Source of the DNA: a virus
Virus record (IMG/VR): IMGVR_UViG_3300025598_000023
Coordinates: 1-64,000 of that record
DNA length: 64,000 bases
Strand: one strand, 5' to 3'
This document shows positions 5,210 through 22,439 of this stretch, piece by piece (position 1 is the stretch's first letter; every line of letters starts with the position of its first letter). The notes beneath the pieces are model-generated. The model was not told where the DNA came from, ran no database searches, and saw only the letters and a program-made list of their open reading frames with translations. The translations under genes were made by a program, and so were the position numbers.

Positions 5210-5358
5210 GCTTATATCCTAATATCTTATATTTACCATAAAATTGTTGTTTGATGTTCTATGCAATTATGCATATTAGATGTTTGTGCAATGCAATCAA
5301 TTAATTATTGCACTGCAATAAATATGTGCGTATTATGCATAACAACAGGAGAATCAGT

Positions 5359-5532
5359 ATGACCAATTTAATTAAACGCATAGCTAAAGCTATTGAAAAG
5401 CATAAAAGATATAACCGCACAGTTCGTGAACTTAGTTTCTTAAGTGATCGTGATTTAGCAGATTTAGGTATTAACCGTTGTGATATTCCAAATATTGCAC
5501 ACCGTGTTACTAGAGAAATGACAATAATTTAA
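5359..5532 (+). CDS. DUF1127 (YjiS-like) small protein
   Basis: RYNRTVRELSFLSDRDLADLGINRCDI matches the DUF1127 pattern (R..R.L..L.D..L.DIG..R..I). AGGAGA RBS precedes ATG at 5359, so the start is moved from 5308. Confidence 0.85.
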   Translation: MTNLIKRIAKAIEKHKRYNRTVRELSFLSDRDLADLGINRCDIPNIAHRVTREMTII

Positions 5533-5553
5533 TTTTTAAAAAATTTAGACAAT

Positions 5554-5580
5554 AAAAAAGGGGCATTTCTGCCCCTTTTT
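5554..5580. terminator. Bidirectional intrinsic terminator
   Basis: AAAAAA-GGGGCA-TTTC-TGCCCC-TTTTT between the convergent DUF1127 and major capsid genes. Confidence 0.9.
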
Positions 5581-5603
5581 GTTTGTTAAATCCAAAACCA
5601 ATA

Positions 5604-6826: not shown

Positions 6827-7924
6827 TTACTTTACCAGACCAGCAAGACGCTTCATTTCAATAATGTTTGAAGATTCTTTCTGTTCTGTTTTTACAGCAC
6901 GGTCACCTGTAACTTCTGTTTTGCTTTCAATGATAGTCTTTTTAGTTTCTACCTTTGGTGCATTACCTTCCATTACTGGGTTTAAGTACTTTTTATATGC
7001 TGCGTCGAGTTTATCTGTTGGGACTGATTCCAGCAGTTGTGACATCACAGCGGCTTTGTCCTTGCTAAGTGGACTTAGCAATTCATTGAGCTTTCCGTTA
7101 CGAGCAATTGATTCATTGATTTTACGGATTTCTACTTCTTTTTCCTTAACTTCAGTCAACGTACGTTCTTGAGCATCACGAGCTTCACTAAGTTGATTTG
7201 CCATAGCAGCAATCTTATTAGTGAGTTTCTTGATGTCTGCGCGTTCATTAAGGTAGCTTGCGCCAAACTCAGTAGCAAAGGCTTCAAAAATCTTACGACC
7301 GAAGTTATTTTCCTTGGCTTCCTGAATATCTGTTTTGAGTTGGTTTAATTCTGTACGTAGATGATTTGTAACTGTGCTTTCTACCAAACTACTTGCCTTC
7401 TTGACAAAACTGTCACGAAGAGTTTCTAGCTTCTTGCGACCTTCGGTAACTACTGCTACCTTAGTTGCTGCAAGGTCAGCCTTGTCTGCTGCAAATTCTG
7501 CAATTTCAGCTTGTAGGTTTTCAGCAACAAATGCTTCCAACTTTGAAATTGTTTTTTGCATATTAGCACGATCACTGCGAAGTTCTGCAACTTCACTTGC
7601 AAGTGATTCACTAAGATAAGAATCAAAATTCTTAGCTTTTTGCATCATTTGCTGTGTGAACTTTACACGGTCTTCGCTTACCATTTCACGTTCAGCCTTA
7701 ATCTTTGTGAGTTCGGCTGTGAGTGATTCGTTAACCATCTTGTCCAGTGCCTCAACCATATTAGCACGGTCGTGTTGATAACGACTAGCCATTTCTTCAC
7801 GAATTTCATCACGAATTTGACCACGTGCTTCTTCTAGCTTTGCATTCCATGCTTCTTCTAGTGTCTTACGTGTATCTTCGTTCAGAAGTCCGCTTTCTAG
7901 TAATGGTTTTAGAGCTTCGAACAT
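6827..7924 (-). CDS. gp22: Prohead scaffold protein (gp22-like)
   Basis: Coiled-coil, Glu/Lys-rich, lies between gp21 and gp23. Confidence 0.85.
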   Translation of the reverse strand: MFEALKPLLESGLLNEDTRKTLEEAWNAKLEEARGQIRDEIREEMASRYQHDRANMVEALDKMVNESLTAELTKIKAEREMVSEDRVKFTQQMMQKAKNFDSYLSESLASEVAELRSDRANMQKTISKLEAFVAENLQAEIAEFAADKADLAATKVAVVTEGRKKLETLRDSFVKKASSLVESTVTNHLRTELNQLKTDIQEAKENNFGRKIFEAFATEFGASYLNERADIKKLTNKIAAMANQLSEARDAQERTLTEVKEKEVEIRKINESIARNGKLNELLSPLSKDKAAVMSQLLESVPTDKLDAAYKKYLNPVMEGNAPKVETKKTIIESKTEVTGDRAVKTEQKESSNIIEMKRLAGLVK

Positions 7925-7939
7925 TAATTTCTCCTGAAC

Positions 7940-8566
7940 TTATATCTTTAATTCAGCAATAAACTTAGCAACTTCTGCTTGCAAGTATTTCTGAACTCGT
8001 TGATCTTGATTTAAATCTTTAGCCATTTCAAGTATACGATGCCCACCTTTCATATTCATGAGTCCTTCATAGACTGCTGTTGGGTAGGCATTAGGTGCAC
8101 TTGGTTGTGCTACTATATCAACAGTAACGATATCAAAATCGCTTACTGCGCCGTCATGTTCATTAACATTACCTGATCCACGACTGCTTACTCCTAGTTT
8201 TACACCACTTTCTAACATGGTGCGAACTAAATTGCCCATTGGTGTAGGCAAAATCTTCATCTTACCATAACCGTTTGGTCCATCTAACCACATTTCTGTA
8301 ATCATATGACTAACACGGTCAAGATTGATGCGTAGGTTAGTTGGGTGATCTACTTCACCCAACACACTATAACCTGTCTTAATTTGCTTATTAAGTGTTT
8401 CAATAGCACGATTGATTTCAGTGATAGGATAAACACGTTGATTAGCGTTCTTCACACCACCTTGGATGCAAATACCCTTAAGGTAAAGGTTTTTGCCTTC
8501 ACCTTCATGGGTCATTTCCATTTTTGCTTGATCGTAGCTAAGATTTTCAATAAGCAAATTATTCAT
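7940..8566 (-). CDS. gp21: Prohead maturation protease (gp21-like)
   Basis: NANQRVYP, LGEVDHP, RVSH, GVSSRGSG and DIVAQPSAPNA motifs. Confidence 0.95.
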   Translation of the reverse strand: MNNLLIENLSYDQAKMEMTHEGEGKNLYLKGICIQGGVKNANQRVYPITEINRAIETLNKQIKTGYSVLGEVDHPTNLRINLDRVSHMITEMWLDGPNGYGKMKILPTPMGNLVRTMLESGVKLGVSSRGSGNVNEHDGAVSDFDIVTVDIVAQPSAPNAYPTAVYEGLMNMKGGHRILEMAKDLNQDQRVQKYLQAEVAKFIAELKI

Positions 8567-9409: not shown

Positions 9410-9514
9410 ATAAAAAACTCCTGTGGAATAATATCCTGTGTTTTTATTTAAACTATGGATTTAAATAGTGCCTCAAATAGGCTAATTTTTACGATTTTTG
9501 AAATATTTGTGAAA

Positions 9515-9739
9515 TTACAAACCAGGTCCACCACTTGGGGGTGGCGCATACATTGTGCGAACTAATTTCATTTGTTCAACGTATTCGACGGTTCGTTGAT
9601 CATTCATCTTGCGTAATTGATTTATTTGAGCCAGTGTAAGTCTTGTTTTACGCAAATCATGCAACTTTTCTACAGTGTTATCCTGAGAAAGGTCTTGATA
9701 AGCTCCGTTATTTGCATTAAACATTTCACTTAAAAACAT
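9515..9739 (-). CDS. Small head-module hypothetical protein
   Basis: 74 aa, GGAG RBS and TAAATA box upstream, within the head gene cluster. Confidence 0.7.
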   Translation of the reverse strand: MFLSEMFNANNGAYQDLSQDNTVEKLHDLRKTRLTLAQINQLRKMNDQRTVEYVEQMKLVRTMYAPPPSGGPGL

Positions 9740-9763
9740 AGTGGCTCCACTTTTTATTTAGGT

Positions 9764-11554
9764 TTATGCGCCACCTAATGCCGCACCCGCTGTAGCACCA
9801 CCTTGACCACCACCTGCTCCACCAGTTGGACTTGGTGCTCCACCAGCACCAACTTCTCCACCAGGCACGGCTGGTGGTATACCAGGACCACCAATACCAG
9901 GTCCACCTTGTGCTGCTTGAATATCACTTATTGTTTCTAAATCGGTGCCAATAGCGCCTGGTGTAACACCAACACTGCGCAAATCTACACCTTGCAGCCT
10001 ACTAGTCGGTTCTTCTGTGCCACGCTCTTCATGCCACATCTTTTCATTTTCAGCCATTTCCATTTCACTCAAACCAAGATATTTCTTTAACATAAAACGT
10101 TTTGCCAAGAAATCAGTTTGTTGTAATTGTGTAAAGGCACTGATACGACTTTGATTTAATTCTAATTCACGATATGCAGCAAAGTTTTGCGGTTCAGTAA
10201 AGCGCAATTCAAACAAGCCATTATCTAGATTAAAACCTTTATGTTTAAGATACAACTTAAACTCTGTGTCAAATTTAGGACTGATATAACGTTGCAATCG
10301 CTTGCAATATTCATTAAAACGATATTCTTGAATTAATGCGGTAGTTACTTTACCATCTGTAAATGCACGATCACTATCTTCTGGTCCAGTTGGTAGGTAG
10401 CTGCTTGGAATACGCAAGCTACGATACATTTTATTTTGGAAGTAACGCAAATCATCAATTTCACCAAGATTTTGACCACCCGGTAAAACTTCTACAGATG
10501 AACCACGACCTTCAGCAGTTTGTGGAAAGAAGAAATCTTCGTTCATACTCATTGGATTATATGAAGCATCCATTAAATTTTGACCGCCACCGCTTTGTGT
10601 TGGAATACGGCGTTGGTTAATTTCGTTCTTAACACGCTCAACAAATTGCATAGCAAGATGCGCTGGCATATTACCAACATCAATCTTAAACATACGGCGT
10701 TCTGGTGCACGACTAATACGATAAATTAGAATAGCATCTTCAAGTAATTCTTTTTGCTTGAATACCTTAAAGATTGCTTCAAAAAGACTTACACCAAACG
10801 GCCAGTTGACATCTAACCCTTCTGTTAAACTTAAGTGAACGATATGTTCTGCTGCTACAGGGAACTCATTATTACCAGCACCAAAACGTGTATTTGGAGA
10901 AAATAATTCACCACCAGCAGTATAAGTTCTGCTACCACCCATATAAGGCGCAAAAGCATAACTGTCATTTGGACCTGGTGGACGTGTAATTGTGCTGTTC
11001 TGCAAATTAGGATTAAGGTCACGAATATAATAAATTTCTGGTTCTTTACCTTTGGATTCATTAACAATAATCTTGCTAACACGATTCATTTCAGTCCAAA
11101 ACCACTTGTATGTTTCTGGATCACGAACAAATACTTGGTCACCATATTTTAATGTGTTTCGGAACATTTTAAAGATACGTTGCTCAAAATCTTGTAGTTT
11201 ATACCAAGAAACAAGCTGTTCTTTTAAAATCATCATTTCATTGTTAGTGGCTTCTTCATGGAAATGAATCGTAAAAGCAGTTTTAGTTTCATCATTAATT
11301 TGTGTGCAAAATTCACTCAAAATATCAAGTGCACTGTTGGCTTCACTATCTAAATCCATATTCTCGTATTGAGTATAACGGTCAATACGGTTAGGGTGAC
11401 CACTATAAACATCTGGCAACATACTTTGATAGTTACGATATGCAGCATTTGCTTGTGAACCAAGATAATTGTAGCTGCTGTAATCTGTTACGCTGCCGTT
11501 AACTGGACTATAAGCCCCATCACTAACGATACGCCAATGTTTTTTCCAACCCAT
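9764..11554 (-). CDS. gp20: Portal protein (gp20-like)
   Basis: LLEDAILIYRISRAPERRMFKIDVGNMP, EDFFFP, LPGGQNLGEIDDLRYF motifs. Confidence 0.96.
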   Translation of the reverse strand: MGWKKHWRIVSDGAYSPVNGSVTDYSSYNYLGSQANAAYRNYQSMLPDVYSGHPNRIDRYTQYENMDLDSEANSALDILSEFCTQINDETKTAFTIHFHEEATNNEMMILKEQLVSWYKLQDFEQRIFKMFRNTLKYGDQVFVRDPETYKWFWTEMNRVSKIIVNESKGKEPEIYYIRDLNPNLQNSTITRPPGPNDSYAFAPYMGGSRTYTAGGELFSPNTRFGAGNNEFPVAAEHIVHLSLTEGLDVNWPFGVSLFEAIFKVFKQKELLEDAILIYRISRAPERRMFKIDVGNMPAHLAMQFVERVKNEINQRRIPTQSGGGQNLMDASYNPMSMNEDFFFPQTAEGRGSSVEVLPGGQNLGEIDDLRYFQNKMYRSLRIPSSYLPTGPEDSDRAFTDGKVTTALIQEYRFNEYCKRLQRYISPKFDTEFKLYLKHKGFNLDNGLFELRFTEPQNFAAYRELELNQSRISAFTQLQQTDFLAKRFMLKKYLGLSEMEMAENEKMWHEERGTEEPTSRLQGVDLRSVGVTPGAIGTDLETISDIQAAQGGPGIGGPGIPPAVPGGEVGAGGAPSPTGGAGGGQGGATAGAALGGA

Positions 11555-11602: not shown

Positions 11603-13876
11603 TTATGCGACACGTGCAGCAGTGCGTTCTGTATATGTTGCAACAGTTTTAGTTGCATCAATTAACTGATCTACTTTATTAATAAGTGTTTGCATTAAGT
11701 CATTTTGCTGACTTGCTGCATATTGTTGAGTACGAACAAGTTCTTGTGACTCAGCACTTGTGCCACTTGCTCTTACAAAATCAGTAAATGCTTCTGCATT
11801 AATATTGTCAGGCAGCGGAACAACTGCTTCATTGCCATGTAGTGTAGCAGGAAAACCACTTTTTGGACCACTTACTATACCACCATCTGCTAGCATTGGT
11901 CCAACAAATGTATAATCTGTTCTGTTTTCAATGTCTGCTTGTTGACGTGCTCGTTCAACATTAAATGCTTGCATATCAGCAAAACCAGCAGTTTTTAAAA
12001 TTTTGTCAATAGATGTATCAGTTACAATAGCAAGATTTTTAATCTGTGCTTCTGTAAGAGTTAATAGTTTAGCATGTGCTTGTTCAAGTTCGCTGCTTCC
12101 TAAACCAAAAACACCTCGTTCTGTGCTTAACTGTTTGTCTTCTCTTGCTTTTTGAGCAATTCCTTTTGTATAATCATCAAATTGTTCGCCATTTCCAAGC
12201 ACAGCCTTGGCTAATCGCTCCATGCCACTAGCAAGTAATCCTGTAACATCATTAAGTTTATTAACAACAGTAAGATAAGCACTTAAACTATCAAATACAG
12301 ATTGTTGAACTTTAATTTGATTTTGCATACCTAATTGTTCTGCTTCTACTAATTTTTTAGTAGTTGGGTCTTCTGTAATAGCAGCCTGCGCTACACTTTG
12401 ACGTAATTTTTCAATTTCTTCTGGTGTTTTATTAAGAAGAGCAATAGATTTTGCTAAAGTTTCAGCTTGCGCTGCAAATGCACTGCCTTCTGTTGAAGCA
12501 GCTAAACCAAAGTCACGCAAACCTTGAATTTGATTTCTTGCCTCTGTTCCATACTCTTCTAGTATTCCTAAACCTTGACCAGTTTGTACAGCACCTTGTT
12601 CAGCAGTATTAAACAACGATCTTGCCATTTTTTCAAATGCTGGTGCTTGTGAAGCAATAATTGCACTTTGTTCAGTGAATACATTGCCACCACTTTTAAC
12701 CATTTCTTTGAACATTTGTTGTGATGCTTCTGGCAGTGCACGTAGTTCATTTTCAATTGCAGCACGTTGTTCAGGTGTTTTTGTAGCCAAATATTGTTGA
12801 TAAGCTAAATCACTTGCATCTTGGTCAGCTTTTGCTTGTAGAGTTTTAGCATCTTGACCAGTTAAATCTGCAATAATTCGTAGATTTTGTGCGTATTGCG
12901 CAGTTGCACGTGCTACTTGTTCATCTGTTGCAGCACCACTACGGCGCATACGAGCACCAACATTAGCTATCAAACCTGGTAATTCTTCAAGCCCAAAACC
13001 TAATGCTTGGAATTGTGAAGGATTAATAAACTTGCTTACACTACCTATTCGCTTTGCACCTTCTGTCATACTTCCACCAAAAAGTATAACTGCATCACGA
13101 TTTTCACTTAACGCTTTACCAAATAAATCTGTTGTTAAACCAGCAGCAAATGCTGCATTTTTCAAACCACTTACACCGTCTGCAAATATAGCACCAGCAT
13201 TACTTGCTTCTTTAAAGGAACTGCTTATAGATTCTACTTGTTTATTCATAAAATCAAGTATCTTACTACCAGCATCACCAACTGCTTGAACAATTGGTCC
13301 AAGTATTGCACCAGCACCTGGTATCACACTAACCAAACCACTTGCTGCACTTGCAATTGTTTTAAACGTAAAAGAGGCATTGCTTAAAGCAGCTTGTAAT
13401 CCTGTATTGCTACTATTATAAGCAGCAGTTAAGTTACCAATAACGGTTGTAACAGCCGCCACAGTTGTTTTAGTAATTTTATTATTAATAAAAAATTCTA
13501 CTTTTGCTGCTGCATCTTCTAAACTTATAGTTGCATCAGACATAAATTTGACAAATTTACTGCTATCAAGTGATGCAATTTTTAATGAATCATTAATATC
13601 ATTCAATCTTATTGTATATTCTTCTTCGGTCATTAACCTTTCTTTATACTGACGGCGCAAAGATTCAGTTTCACGTTCACGCTGTGTTAGCGCAACTTTT
13701 AAAGCATCATTTAGTTTTTTAGTATCTGCTTTTGTTCCTTTGGACACAGAATCAGCATAAGCAGTAGTTTTATTATATAAAATAGACATTGCTTTATCAA
13801 AAGCACCTGCTCTCTCATTAAGCACTGCTAGTTGTTCTGCAAATTTTTTTAACTGTTCTTCTGTATTTTCAGCCAT
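11603..13876 (-). CDS. Tape-measure-like protein
   Basis: Ala-rich helical protein with C-terminal LADGGIVSGP...LHGNEAVVP motif common in tape measure proteins; adjacent to the chaperone pair. Start moved to ATG 13876, downstream of a TATAAATA box. Confidence 0.7.
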   Translation of the reverse strand: MAENTEEQLKKFAEQLAVLNERAGAFDKAMSILYNKTTAYADSVSKGTKADTKKLNDALKVALTQRERETESLRRQYKERLMTEEEYTIRLNDINDSLKIASLDSSKFVKFMSDATISLEDAAAKVEFFINNKITKTTVAAVTTVIGNLTAAYNSSNTGLQAALSNASFTFKTIASAASGLVSVIPGAGAILGPIVQAVGDAGSKILDFMNKQVESISSSFKEASNAGAIFADGVSGLKNAAFAAGLTTDLFGKALSENRDAVILFGGSMTEGAKRIGSVSKFINPSQFQALGFGLEELPGLIANVGARMRRSGAATDEQVARATAQYAQNLRIIADLTGQDAKTLQAKADQDASDLAYQQYLATKTPEQRAAIENELRALPEASQQMFKEMVKSGGNVFTEQSAIIASQAPAFEKMARSLFNTAEQGAVQTGQGLGILEEYGTEARNQIQGLRDFGLAASTEGSAFAAQAETLAKSIALLNKTPEEIEKLRQSVAQAAITEDPTTKKLVEAEQLGMQNQIKVQQSVFDSLSAYLTVVNKLNDVTGLLASGMERLAKAVLGNGEQFDDYTKGIAQKAREDKQLSTERGVFGLGSSELEQAHAKLLTLTEAQIKNLAIVTDTSIDKILKTAGFADMQAFNVERARQQADIENRTDYTFVGPMLADGGIVSGPKSGFPATLHGNEAVVPLPDNINAEAFTDFVRASGTSAESQELVRTQQYAASQQNDLMQTLINKVDQLIDATKTVATYTERTAARVA

Positions 13877-13925
13877 CAAATTGACCTTGTTAAATAACTT
13901 TATATTATTTATAGGTAGCAAAAAT

Positions 13926-14771
13926 ATGCAAAAATCAACTAATCCACTTGCTTCGCATTTTCGTCAACCAGCGATTTATCTTAAACTTCCAAGCGGTGGC
14001 AGATATTGGGCACCTGGCAGCTTAAACTTGCCAGCAAATGGTGAGATTGGTGTTATGCCAATGACTACTAAAGATGAGATTTTATTAAGAACTCCCGATG
14101 CTCTTATGAATGGTGATGGTGTAGTTAAGGTTATTGAGAGTTGCTGCCCTAATATTACTAATGCTTGGGGTATGCCTACTATTGACGCAGATAGCATTTT
14201 AATTGCTATTCGTATTGCAACATATGGCAGTGCTATGGATATTGACAGCAGTTGTCCTAAATGTAATCACGAAAATAGACACCAAATTCCATTAAATGAT
14301 GTGCTTATGCGAGTTCGTGCACCTGATTATTCACCAGTATTGAATATAGATGGGCTACAAATACGTTTTAAACCGATTAATTATCTACAATCTACAAAAA
14401 ACAATATCATTGATTTTGAAAATCAAAAACTTGCAGAAGTAATTCTTAATGAAAATTTAGACGAAGAAACAAAAAAAGCACAATTTGATGTTCATGTTCA
14501 AAAAATTGTAGATGCAAGCACTAATATTCTAGTAATGGGCACAGCAAGTATTACAACAGAAAATGGTGATTTAGTTACCGAACCTGAATATATTCATGAA
14601 TTTTATACAAATACTACCAACAAAAACATAAACTTGATCAAAGATAAACTGCAATCAATTAATGAAGTTGCTAATTTACCACCTGTAAAAGTTCAATGTG
14701 AAGGTTGTGAAAGTGAATATAGTGTAGGAGTCACGTTTGATTACGCAAATTTTTTCGGTCCACCATCCTAA
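13926..14771 (+). CDS. gp26: Baseplate hub/tail assembly chaperone (gp26-like)
   Basis: LKLPSGG, PMTTKDE, LIAIRIATYG, CPKC and CEGC zinc motifs, ends ..ANFF. ATG start at 13926. Confidence 0.75.
   Translation: MQKSTNPLASHFRQPAIYLKLPSGGRYWAPGSLNLPANGEIGVMPMTTKDEILLRTPDALMNGDGVVKVIESCCPNITNAWGMPTIDADSILIAIRIATYGSAMDIDSSCPKCNHENRHQIPLNDVLMRVRAPDYSPVLNIDGLQIRFKPINYLQSTKNNIIDFENQKLAEVILNENLDEETKKAQFDVHVQKIVDASTNILVMGTASITTENGDLVTEPEYIHEFYTNTTNKNINLIKDKLQSINEVANLPPVKVQCEGCESEYSVGVTFDYANFFGPPS
14747..14756 (+). other. Candidate programmed -1 ribosomal frameshift site (A AAT TTT TTC)
   Basis: Two overlapping X-XXY-YYZ heptamers (AAATTTT, TTTTTTC) in register with the gp26-like ORF; the -1 frame is open into the next ORF. 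Confidence 0.65.
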
Positions 14772-14791: not shown

Positions 14792-14986
14792 ATGGCACTG
14801 GTGGAACGATACGAAAAAGACGTAAAAAATATTAAACAAAATATTTTAAGGATCGTTTGGTATATGCGTGGTGGGGTTACTTATTCAGAAGCAATGGATA
14901 TGAGTATTCAGGAACGTGAAATAATTAGTAAAATTATTGACGAAAATTTAGAAACTACAAAAAAGATAAATTTACCTTTTTTCTAA
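14792..14986 (+). CDS. gp51-like assembly catalyst; probably the -1 frameshift extension of the upstream ORF
   Basis: WYMRGGVTYSEAMDMSIQERE resembles gp51/GT-type chaperone C-termini; its frame is open back to the slippery site at 14747. Confidence 0.7.
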   Translation: MALVERYEKDVKNIKQNILRIVWYMRGGVTYSEAMDMSIQEREIISKIIDENLETTKKINLPFF

Positions 14987-15294
14987 CCAAAAAGTATCCA
15001 AAGTTCAACCAATAATCCTAAAAGTGGTCCCCATCCAAGAAATAGAAAAAATAGTAATCCTACAAATAATTCACCTTCGCTGATAGGAAGTATAATCAAA
15101 TACCACCATAACACTCCACCAACTACAACATATGAAATTATTTTAAACCAACTTGGTAAATCTGCATTAGAACCTGATGAACCAGAACTGTTTTGTGATT
15201 CCACTGCTACTGATTGGCGTCTTAATAATTCTGCTTTTTCACAATCAGGACAACGCAACCTGAAAGTAGTTCCATGAAGATAACACGTAGCCAT
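14983..15294 (-). CDS. Small membrane protein with N-terminal CxxH/CxxC motif
   Basis: Two C-terminal hydrophobic segments; GGGAG RBS before ATG 15294; has its own sigma70-like promoter. Confidence 0.7.
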   Translation of the reverse strand: MATCYLHGTTFRLRCPDCEKAELLRRQSVAVESQNSSGSSGSNADLPSWFKIISYVVVGGVLWWYLIILPISEGELFVGLLFFLFLGWGPLLGLLVELWILFG

Positions 15295-15313
15295 AAGCAA
15301 CTCCCTATACTTT

Positions 15314-15341
15314 ATATTACCACAAAATCAGTATTAGTCAA
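15314..15341 (-). promoter_or_regulatory. Sigma70-like promoter
   Basis: TTGACT-16 nt-TAATAT with extended -10 TG. Confidence 0.55.
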
Positions 15342-15352
15342 GAAGTATTAGA

Positions 15353-15777
15353 TGATGTGCTACGCACATCAGTTCAGGTGCTATCGCACCTTCACCTTTT
15401 TTCAGTTCTTCTTTATAATCAATCTTTTTAGTTTCATTTAGACTGGATTTCAGACATAGATTCCCTTAAGCAGGAAATCTATGCCCTTGATGCTTCATTT
15501 GAGCTATCAAACAGACACTAACAAAAGGAACTTGTTTCCAAGTGGGGCGGTTAGCCTATACCCCTTTACATCCAGTAGATTATACCAACGGTTCCTACAT
15601 ATACCCTTGTTAGCGAATATATGTAAGCTGAGGTTGCTTATTCTCAGAGCCTCATCGTTTAGCCTATCGTTTGGCCAAACGTTGTCCATCACAGCAATGT
15701 CGGGGTGCTGACAACCTTCAAACTATTCATATTTGGGACTATGCTGCCTGAAATGCCTATGTGCCTATGGAGCCAAT
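15353..15777 (-). ncRNA. Candidate large structured RNA and/or replication-origin region
   Basis: ~430 nt without a credible ORF, with at least 8 stems, a GAAA tetraloop, long-range pairings and an upstream promoter. Confidence 0.6.
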
Positions 15778-15783
15778 GGGATA

Positions 15784-15812
15784 ATAGTATATATGTAAAT
15801 TGCCTTTGTCAA
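15784..15812 (-). promoter_or_regulatory. Sigma70-like promoter reading into the structured region
   Basis: TTGACA (15812-15807), 17 nt, TACTAT (15789-15784). Confidence 0.65.
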
Positions 15813-16927
15813 TAACTTTTTTGAAAATCTTTAACAAAATATGCTTTGCTTATAAGTGTTGCATTTAATTCTGTGCTATTATTGATTTTTTTAATATTTT
15901 CTAGTCCATTCATATAAGTTTTGTATACTTTAATTTCATTGTTTTTTGCATAATTTAATAATTTTAAACTATCTGGACTATCAGTATTATTTGTATGTAA
16001 AAACTTTTGAGAACCAATAACGCTGCTTATATCGCTATGATATAAAGGATATCTACCCATTGCTATATTCCAAGCTGAATAATATTTTGTATATGGACCA
16101 TTTTTACTCATATCTTTGCCTTGAATTAAATGTACAAGTTCTGGTGAAAATTCAGGCAGAGTTTCAAACCATTTACATACATTCCATGCTTGTTTTATGA
16201 ATAATTCTGGTAAATCTTCACTTAAATAAAAACTTTCTTGTTTACTACCAACAATATCAGACAAGTTATCATCGAGAAAAAAACAATACCATTTATTATC
16301 ATGTAGATATACTTTTGCTTTTTCGTGACCCATTATGTCAGCACGTGTGGTATATTTGTTTAAATTTTTGATAATATTTTCATGATAATTAGTAAGGTAA
16401 TATTTGGTTGTTTTATTAAACCTTAAAGTGCTACCAATATGATATATCCAATAATCACCCATACTATCATAAAAATTTATTATATCAGAGTAATGGATTG
16501 GAATAATATTGATTTTTATATTTGGAAAATAATTTTTTTTGATGGTCTTTGCGTGTTCAACAGCAAATTTATATTCAGGATCATCATATAGTGATGTCCT
16601 GTCAATTATTACTAATTCATCTAACAATATATGATTATCTACAAAAGTTTTTAATATAGTGTGACTATCATAACCACCGCTATACCAAAGAGACACATAT
16701 GAATAACGTTCTCTTATTTGTTCACATCTTATTTTAACTAGCTCTTGCCAAGTTTGTTGCGGCTCAATGTGCCAACTTGACTTATTCCATGTATTCTCCA
16801 TCCATTTGAAGCTAATCTTGGAAACATCACCAGAACTTAATTCAATAGCGCGTATTTTACTGTAGGTTTTTTCTCCATTTACATCATAATAACTATCTTC
16901 ATGGTTATACACTTGTGTTTTATTCAT
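15809..16927 (-). CDS. PP-loop (adenine nucleotide alpha-hydrolase-like) enzyme
   Basis: SLWYSGGYDS motif (SGGxDS, as in asparagine synthetase/QueC/TilS-type ATP pyrophosphatases); substrate unknown. Confidence 0.7.
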   Translation of the reverse strand: MNKTQVYNHEDSYYDVNGEKTYSKIRAIELSSGDVSKISFKWMENTWNKSSWHIEPQQTWQELVKIRCEQIRERYSYVSLWYSGGYDSHTILKTFVDNHILLDELVIIDRTSLYDDPEYKFAVEHAKTIKKNYFPNIKINIIPIHYSDIINFYDSMGDYWIYHIGSTLRFNKTTKYYLTNYHENIIKNLNKYTTRADIMGHEKAKVYLHDNKWYCFFLDDNLSDIVGSKQESFYLSEDLPELFIKQAWNVCKWFETLPEFSPELVHLIQGKDMSKNGPYTKYYSAWNIAMGRYPLYHSDISSVIGSQKFLHTNNTDSPDSLKLLNYAKNNEIKVYKTYMNGLENIKKINNSTELNATLISKAYFVKDFQKSY

Positions 16928-18117: not shown

Positions 18118-18876
18118 CTACCATTTTAATTTTTGTGACACTTTGTCGAATAATTTTGATATTACATAACCATTAATTGCAATAATACATACTATAACAT
18201 ACATTTTATCAATATCCATAGTAGATTTTACATCTATCATGTATGTTCCTAAACCATGATATCCACCAATGTTACCAAATACTACTTCAAGGGAAATCAG
18301 TGTTCGCCACATATATGCCCAACTTGTGCTACAAAGTGAAATGATAATTGGTGCAGTGGCTGGCAAATATACATGAATAAAACTTTGTTTTATACCCCAA
18401 TTTAAATTCTGCACATGCTTTTCCCATGTCAGCTTTATTGTGTCAAAAGCAGATAATATCTGGTAACAAGTTGCAAAATATACACTAAAAACAACTACTA
18501 CAATTACAACATTGCTTGATAATCCAAAAATTAAAACTAAAAAAGGGATTAGGACAAAACTTGGTAGCGGAGTAAAATATCCACAATAACATTCTATTAT
18601 TTTGCGAAAAAATGGAAATATCCAACATAAACATATTGTTATAGCAATACTAATACATAAAATTGCCCACGCAGTAAACAACATTATGATAGTGTCGAAA
18701 TAAGTTATCCATAGCAATTTTGTTTGTAGCATATTAATTGCAGTTGTTGTTATTGTAATAATACTTGGAAAAACTAATGTTTCATTAATGGCAAAACAAA
18801 TGCACTGCCAAGCAACTATTAATAAACCAATGGCTATAATATTAATGATGTAGTTTTTTGATAAAATCTTTTTCAT
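18118..18876 (-). CDS. ABC transporter permease (NitT/TauT type)
   Basis: About 6 TM segments, PLPSFVLIP, HVYLPA, WRTLISLE...GLG motifs like TauC/SsuC. Confidence 0.85.
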   Translation of the reverse strand: MKKILSKNYIINIIAIGLLIVAWQCICFAINETLVFPSIITITTTAINMLQTKLLWITYFDTIIMLFTAWAILCISIAITICLCWIFPFFRKIIECYCGYFTPLPSFVLIPFLVLIFGLSSNVVIVVVVFSVYFATCYQILSAFDTIKLTWEKHVQNLNWGIKQSFIHVYLPATAPIIISLCSTSWAYMWRTLISLEVVFGNIGGYHGLGTYMIDVKSTMDIDKMYVIVCIIAINGYVISKLFDKVSQKLKW

Positions 18877-21931: not shown

Positions 21932-22439
21932 AAGAAATCCTCACAAATTCACTATTTAATTTCCAAAAACGATCATATTCCATAATAGCCCAACGAACAT
22001 CTTTATATTGATATAACATATGATATTCTACAAATAACGGCATATCATAATAAGAATCAAATTCTACTGCAACAAATTTGCCTTTTCGATTAAACTTCAT
22101 AATAAGAATGTTAAAGTCATTATCATCTGCTACTTCTAGAAGTTGGTCTAACCATACATTAAGTTGTTTACATTCGCCATTAAACAACTGATGGAAGGGA
22201 AAATCAGCATAGCTTTTACATTCGCAATTAAACTTAGGGAAACTTTGACCAGGTATAATATCGCCTTTGAAACTACGAATTTGACCTTCGTGTAGAACTT
22301 CTTTGCGTTTTGTATTGGCACCGCCAATATACGCACCACTGTTTGGTACGCGTATAAATGTTTCACCATATAGTTCTGTTAAATGCTTGGCAACATCACG
22401 TTCCCAACTGTTGCCTTTGTTTTTACTTTTACTTGTCAT
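21924..22439 (-). CDS. Holliday junction resolvase-like PD-(D/E)xK nuclease
   Basis: SKNKGNSWER...GDII...ECK pattern of Hjc-like phage resolvases; follows gp46. Confidence 0.8.
   Translation of the reverse strand: MTSKSKNKGNSWERDVAKHLTELYGETFIRVPNSGAYIGGANTKRKEVLHEGQIRSFKGDIIPGQSFPKFNCECKSYADFPFHQLFNGECKQLNVWLDQLLEVADDNDFNILIMKFNRKGKFVAVEFDSYYDMPLFVEYHMLYQYKDVRWAIMEYDRFWKLNSEFVRISCA

Follow-up and report, generated by a model that had tools for sequence, protein, structure and literature searches.

The largest ORF-free gap of the analysed window holds a gene, inferred from sequence comparison, for a multiply pseudoknotted non-coding RNA of roughly 400 nt. It lies at the same genomic position in hundreds of uncultured T4-related phages from lakes and oceans, is kept far better than the neighbouring proteins and matches no Rfam family. 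The window is a stretch of 64,000 nucleotides, positions 1 to 64,000 of IMG/VR record IMGVR_UViG_3300025598_000023, a 111-kb record rated 33% complete by CheckV. The element occupies about 15353-15770 on the minus strand, and there is one copy in this record. Sequencing runs that contain the window's own sequence are freshwater and lake-water metagenomes.

An earlier note had described the region as a densely structured non-coding element behind a promoter sequence, in the largest gap of a gene-dense window; the observation holds, and its structural description is largely correct. The gap between ORFs of 100 aa or more spans 508 nt (15301-15808), the next largest being 394 nt (5210-5603) and 354 nt (9410-9763). 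Every frame on both strands carries 5-18 stop codons, of all three kinds, so an altered genetic code does not rescue a gene. The G+C content is 0.42, against 0.25-0.35 in the flanks. The minus strand folds at -135.8 kcal/mol, with z = -4.6 against dinucleotide shuffles (0 of 100 as good), whereas the plus strand gives z = -2.45. The promoter and the three AGGCA repeats reported in the note are present, but the promoter match is not above chance on its own (6 promoter-like sites found against 6.6 expected), and it is not conserved in most relatives. The features of the locus are collected in the table below.

Features of the locus, in window coordinates; percentages and covarying pairs are from 91 distinct cores or 19 full-length relatives
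Position	Strand	Feature	Observation
18118..18876	-	ABC-transporter inner-membrane permease family gene (Pfam BPD_transp_1, E = 8.8e-14)	Unusual cargo for a lytic myophage; part of a conserved block (neighbour clusters c9, c12, c13) upstream of the RNA in this subfamily
15809..16927	-	372-aa protein with PP-loop-like motif (W/F)SGG(Y/W)DS	Motif invariant in 18 homologues
15784..15812	-	Sigma-70-like promoter: TTGACA (15807-15812), 17-nt spacer, TACTAT (15784-15789)	10 of 12 matches; would start transcription near 15777
15745..15767	-	Three (U)AGGCA repeats, TAGGCA-CA-TAGGCA-TTTC-AGGCA, spaced 9-10 nt apart	Only such cluster in the window; GGCA/GGCU repeats at 10-11-nt spacing sit at the same relative position across the phage subfamilies
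15735..15744	-	GCAUAGUCCC box	An (A/U)AUAG motif sits at a fixed 3-5 nt after the last GGCA repeat throughout the family
15692..15710	-	5' domain, hairpin CAGCA...UGCUG	95.8% paired; 3 pairs with compensatory changes
15668..15681	-	5' domain, hairpin CGUUUG-GC-CAAACG	89% paired; 2 pairs with compensatory changes
15630..15653	-	P1, 4-bp stem GAGG/CCUC closing the loop in GCUCUGAGAAUAAGCAAC	100% paired, 3 of 4 pairs covary; loop near-invariant in the main subfamilies, replaced by a short loop in diverged ones
15594..15627	-	P2, 10-bp hairpin with the 14-nt loop UUCGCUAACAAGGG (15604-15617)	87% paired; all 10 pairs show compensatory changes
15544..15591	-	Core pseudoknot: CCG, X 5' strand GUUGG (15585-15589), Y 5' strand GGGG (15561-15564), UAUAGG, X 3' strand CUAAC (15550-15554), CG, Y 3' strand CCCC (15544-15547)	X 97% paired, 4 of 5 pairs covary; Y 100% paired in the 19 full-length relatives, 3 of 4 covary
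15530..15543	-	Hairpin ACUUG-GAAA-CAAGU	89.5% paired; 3 pairs covary
15516..15528	-	3' strand of the second pseudoknot (PK-A): CUUUUGUUAGUG, pairing with the P2 loop CGCUAACAAGGG	6 pairs covary
15455..15483	-	Hairpin CAUAGAUUUCC-UGCUUAA-GGGAAUCUAUG	85% paired; 8 pairs covary
15397..15442	-	Conserved UCUAAAUGAAAC, then an A-rich linker	Linker poorly conserved in sequence
15372..15396	-	3'-terminal hairpin H1, with tandem G.A pairs	6 pairs covary
15353..15371	-	3'-terminal hairpin H2	6 pairs covary; no U-tract follows and conservation ends here
14983..15341	-	Downstream 103-aa gene with promoter-like site (TTGACT-16-TAATAT) and GGGAG ribosome-binding site	Not part of the RNA and not conserved beside it
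13881..14771	+	Baseplate hub-like ORF	Downstream, as in the syntenic order
9764..11554		Portal	Downstream, with a 772-aa ORF

Relatives were sought through the adjacent proteins. Locus searches with either of the two flanking proteins alone found nothing, but the upstream 372-aa protein has 17 homologues at 34-80% identity, and an alignment of the 18 sequences retrieved 42 viral loci. Just downstream of that gene, 17 of these loci carry the element (16 directly after it) at 66-94% nucleotide identity, although the protein is only 27-49% identical. Among them the RNA is 83-94% identical where the protein is 44-49% identical; in L011, one of these loci, the values are 94% and 46%. This inversion of the usual pattern is the strongest single sign of a functional RNA. 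The near-invariant loop GCUNUGAGAANAAGCAAC occurs in at least 120 IMG/VR contigs, and a 20-mer version of it in at least 120 metagenome contigs, which include Tara Oceans and lake samples. A covariance model of the 124-position core (R1) found one full-length match in each of 93 loci out of 93 (E <= 5e-12), the window scoring 116.9 bits (E = 7e-33) over the full model. A second, looser motif from the pseudoknot (TACAGGNCAACCGCC) brought in 68 further loci, of which 42 were hit by the core model and are family members with a much shorter P1 loop; those inspected share the same gene neighbourhood.

RNAalifold on sequence-only alignments missed P2 and helix Y, and these helices were therefore set by hand and then tested. 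Homolog alignment with covariation had been named beforehand as a check on the element. On 91 distinct core sequences, 627 cells are changed on both sides against 202 +/- 12 in shuffles (0 of 500 as high), and sliding the partners by one to three columns drops pairing from 90% to 39-53%. On the full length, in 19 relatives, 56 pairs showed compensatory change against 34 in shuffles (0 of 500). Helix Y suffers a one-column register shift in one subfamily of the large alignment, where pairing is 80%. The P2 loop pairs with a segment 10-24 nt past the core in nearly every subfamily; there are 35 distinct duplexes of 7 bp or more, and the mean best duplex is 7.58 against 5.72 +/- 0.13 when loops are matched to unrelated members' downstream segments. 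In one marine subfamily (locus L046, about 7814-7824, and equivalents in L142, L098 and L089) a second segment (AACGGGCGAA, or CCCUGUUGGGCGAA in L142) lies 72-121 nt past the core, is complementary to the whole P2 loop and covaries with it. It competes with the proximal partner and could represent an alternative conformation. The first 3' hairpin carries one tandem G.A/A.G mismatch in the window and two in most relatives (GUGAGUGAGCG...CGAACGAAC; columns 471-495 of the alignment A6), a regular motif which may be a protein-binding or tertiary-contact site.

Of the stems listed in the earlier note, covariation supports CGTTTG/CAAACG, (T)GAGG/CCTC(A) (P1), TACATAT/ATATGTA (P2), GGGG/CCCC (Y), ACTTG/CAAGT and CATAGATT/AATCTATG, as well as the pseudoknot-like pairing of loop 15604-15614 with 15517-15528. 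Two are not supported, GTTGTC/GACAAC being 71% paired and ACTGGAT/ATCCAGT 70.5% paired, both without compensatory change; nor is TTGAT/ATCAA supported in the full-length alignment. Helix X, which turns GGGG/CCCC into a pseudoknot, had been missed. A pairing of AUAGUCC with GGCUA, considered as an RNase P P4-like interaction, was dropped since the partner is not conserved in other subfamilies.

No Rfam 15 family, including GOLLD, ROOL, OLE, raiA, RNase P, tmRNA, group I/II introns, 6S, pRNA, riboswitches and small ribozymes, matched at the gathering threshold in the whole window or in 12 diverged loci. At E <= 10 the locus gave only three chance-level hits of 13-15 bits, and nothing lay on the RNA in the bacterial copies described below. 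ARAGORN found no tRNA or tmRNA gene in the window, in 35 related loci or in 3 bacterial loci. Group I introns have a P3/P7 pseudoknot with P8 between P3' and P7', a P4-P6 domain and a location inside a gene; here only two nucleotides (CG) separate X 3' from Y 3', leaving no P8 and excluding this arrangement, and the element is intergenic in all loci. No paper in the library searched contains the invariant motifs. The candidate structured RNAs of Fremin et al. 2023 (PMC10690425), more than 10,000 in number, derive from IMG/VR as well and may include this family as an unnamed member; the text of that paper mentions no T4-like, jumbo or baseplate-linked large RNA.

Clustering the neighbours of 97 loci revealed a fixed gene order: a gp55-like late sigma factor, SbcD (gp47-like), SbcC (gp46-like), a small ORF, a 141-aa SegE-type GIY-YIG protein, the RNA, variable genes and then, on the opposite strand, a small ORF and a T4-type baseplate hub, followed by a 650-800-aa protein and the portal. 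In the window's subfamily a block of genes that includes the 372-aa protein is inserted just upstream of the RNA. The PP-loop-like motif of this protein is of the SGGxDS ATP-binding type; the protein has no Pfam family above threshold, and a profile search against PDB sequences gave no hit. It is duplicated in tandem in loci L002/L138, and is found beside the RNA in the window's subfamily and a few related lineages, but not in most of the family. Elsewhere the upstream neighbour is usually the GIY-YIG protein, but can be other proteins or an integrase. The gene that follows the RNA differs in family between subfamilies and is often on the other strand.

The closest cultured phages by portal protein are Agrobacterium phage Atu_ph07, the Pseudomonas PA5oct group, Erwinia phage pEa_SNUABM_49 and Sinorhizobium phage Phosso, at about 46-49% identity. 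A blastn search of cultured phages (INPHARED) with five different family members, the window's own copy among them, gave no match. However, a second covariance model built from 58 diverse members (R2) found PA5oct 13113-13307 (28.9 bits, E = 2.5e-5 for the genome), in an unannotated 911-nt gap of the long terminal repeat (locus L410, 1810-2722; NC_071039.1 12809-13721). This diverged copy looks intact and lies behind a perfect TTGACA-17-TATAAT promoter, which is followed by P1 with a GCUCUGguAGAAA loop, P2, CCG-GGGAU...GAGG-AAAAAG-GUCCC-CG-CCUC (helices X and Y) and a 7-bp partner for the P2 loop. Weaker matches fall exactly in the syntenic gaps of PA5oct (76333-76423) and of the Erwinia phage (175374-175490; 15.9 bits), and another in an 840-nt unannotated gap of Atu_ph07. 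The two PA5oct copies share the stretch AAAUUAUGAUUUUGGGUGCUG; the weaker one (locus L165, 7040-7300; record about 76.25-76.5 kb) lies where only very small ORFs (gp338-gp341) are annotated and overlaps gp338. Unannotated gaps of 0.8-1.0 kb occur at the syntenic position in both Phosso (L402, 6126-7141) and the Erwinia phage (L401, 7910-8714); that of Phosso, flanked by a Holliday-junction resolvase and RNase HI, gave no model match.

Two of about 185,000 species genomes carry the exact 20-mer, namely a contig of a Legionellales metagenome-assembled genome and scaffold 36 of Alsobacter soli SH9 (locus L180, 6562-10717). In A. soli a G+C-rich full-length copy, with the second pseudoknot and two 3' hairpins recognisable, starts right after a large serine recombinase, 1.5 kb from a truncated ChlI/ComM-like ORF. 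In a sample of 151 genomes of the same bacterial order two more matched: one (31.5 bits; L178, 4926-7363) lies in a 770-nt gap just after a tyrosine integrase and an AlpA gene, while the other lies inside a 1160-aa ORF and is probably false. None of 150 other genomes of the same phylum matched. The RNA is thus rare in bacteria and, where present, rides on integrative elements, which suggests that it is cargo at their edge. PADLOC gave no hit for 9 neighbouring proteins, and no protein family is shared between the bacterial and phage contexts.

With moderate confidence, we propose that the gap encodes a stand-alone gene for a structured RNA of about 380-425 nt on the minus strand (about 15353-15777). 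The analysis demonstrates a conserved, multiply pseudoknotted and non-coding RNA with P1, P2, the compact X/Y pseudoknot with its conserved joining nucleotides and the second pseudoknot, flanked by a 5' domain and two 3' hairpins, present as one copy in this record, widespread in T4-related phages and not tied to any one neighbouring gene. That it is transcribed, and on its own, is inferred from sequence, as is a host sigma-70-type promoter in this member and in PA5oct; since the neighbouring genes differ between members, we also infer that it acts in trans as a folded RNA rather than as a regulator of a neighbour. In the mechanism we favour, the near-invariant unpaired nucleotides (UAAAnGA, CCG, UACAGG, CG and, in most members, the 16-nt P1 loop) and the pseudoknot pocket would bind a conserved phage or host macromolecule, or form a catalytic site, during infection; nothing found here identifies a binding partner or a catalytic activity. 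The GGCA repeats would then be a binding array for a protein, either on the DNA (promoter control or iterons) or on the 5' end of the RNA. A role of the AGGCA...ATAG arrangement as a general promoter of this phage was rejected, because the cluster is unique in the window.

The interpretation in the earlier note is supported in part: a large phage ncRNA is strongly supported, whereas its alternative, a structured primer RNA for an R-loop origin, is neither shown nor excluded, and we consider it unlikely. In that view a specialised promoter with iteron-like repeats would make a transcript that forms a persistent R-loop at the A-rich tract and is processed into a leading-strand primer, as with ColE1 RNA II or the T4 oriF/oriG transcripts. 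The repeats are spaced 9-11 nt apart, about one DNA helical turn, and are conserved in position across the phage family; an A-rich tract lies between the core and the 3' hairpins; and the locus sits at the junction of recombination and baseplate genes, loosely resembling T4 oriF beside uvsY and genes 25/26. RNase HI and the resolvase beside the Phosso gap point the same way. However, T4 origin transcripts are not known to have a conserved fold, whereas here loop nucleotides, two pseudoknots and 3' hairpins are conserved across phages whose proteins share only 25-45% identity. The A-rich tract is not conserved in sequence, the copies beside integrases and in the PA5oct terminal repeat also fit poorly, and GC skew simply follows gene direction, with no switch at the locus. 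A 10-of-12 sigma-70 match is present in the window; it is absent from most relatives, and the match is not above chance in this region.

A ribozyme, self-processing or acting on another RNA, with the X/Y pseudoknot and its invariant CCG, UACAGG and CG joiners as the active site, is similarly doubtful. The size, architecture and invariant unpaired nucleotides are typical of catalytic RNAs, and since no terminator-like site was found on the minus strand the 3' end may be made by processing; yet no ribozyme family in Rfam matches even at E <= 10, the P1 loop is dispensable in diverged subfamilies and no cleavage site can be inferred from sequence. Also unlikely is a cis-acting riboswitch or leader of the downstream gene, or a 3' UTR stabilising or terminating the upstream operon. 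The element always lies downstream of, and on the same strand as, the preceding genes, in some subfamilies (for example L046) a gene follows on the same strand within 50 nt, and group A members have a second segment complementary to the P2 loop, which could be an alternative pairing. Against this, both neighbours vary, in the window the next gene has its own promoter-like site and ribosome-binding site 50 nt past the RNA, and about 400 nt with two pseudoknots is far more than a terminator or stabiliser needs. That the 61-aa or 76-aa ORFs inside the gap are the functional unit is very improbable. These ORFs exist, and an antisense ORF of 60-77 aa is open in the closest relatives (neighbour cluster c14), but stop-free stretches range from 34 to 96 codons with no consistent frame across 19 relatives, 241 of 261 alignment gap runs are not multiples of three, there are no Pfam hits and the substitutions in helices are compensatory.

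Among described systems, GOLLD and ROOL are likewise large, intricately folded, pseudoknotted RNAs of unknown function, carried mainly by phages or mobile elements, found in environmental sequence and standing alone as genes; cryo-EM shows that they form RNA-only multimers (PMC12286853). No sequence or structure match to them was found at E <= 10. They are larger, at about 580 and 800 nt, and the present RNA has no tRNA genes nearby and a fixed syntenic position in T4-related myophages. ColE1 RNA II and the T4 oriF/oriG transcripts are promoter-driven non-coding transcripts in gene gaps, as this RNA would be, and RNA II needs a defined fold. Here, however, no origin activity is known, tertiary RNA structure is conserved over very deep divergence, the RNA also occurs in integrated bacterial elements and no homology was found. 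The four ncRNAs of PA5oct (Lood et al. 2020, PMC7318152) are abundant transcripts of 235-620 nt, of unknown function, in a T4-related jumbo phage, but their coordinates (8263-8498, 21951-22401, 103065-103368, 246116-246734) do not overlap the copies found here. As an analogy only, phi29 pRNA is a phage-encoded structured RNA whose loop-loop pairing covaries, and the present gene lies a few kb from the portal gene; there is no Rfam match, T4-type packaging motors are not known to need RNA, and the loop pairing here can be explained within one molecule.

By every test applied here, this is a new RNA family with no described relative. It remains possible, though tentative, that it is a new class of large functional RNA, either a ribozyme or the RNA core of a ribonucleoprotein. 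It would then be a core gene of a major clade of aquatic and soil T4-related (many jumbo) myophages, occasionally captured by integrative elements, and its double-pseudoknot core would carry out a task in infection that no known RNA class performs. If instead the origin-primer reading were right, this would be the first conserved structured origin RNA in T4-like phages. Large, intricately folded RNAs without a known function are rare, and each one solved so far has revealed new biochemistry; the copies in the cultivable phage PA5oct and in the A. soli SH9 assembly make the question experimentally tractable. The RNA is abundant in lake and ocean viromes, is kept at one genomic position across a very deep phage clade and is conserved far better than the proteins around it, which implies strong selection on the RNA itself.
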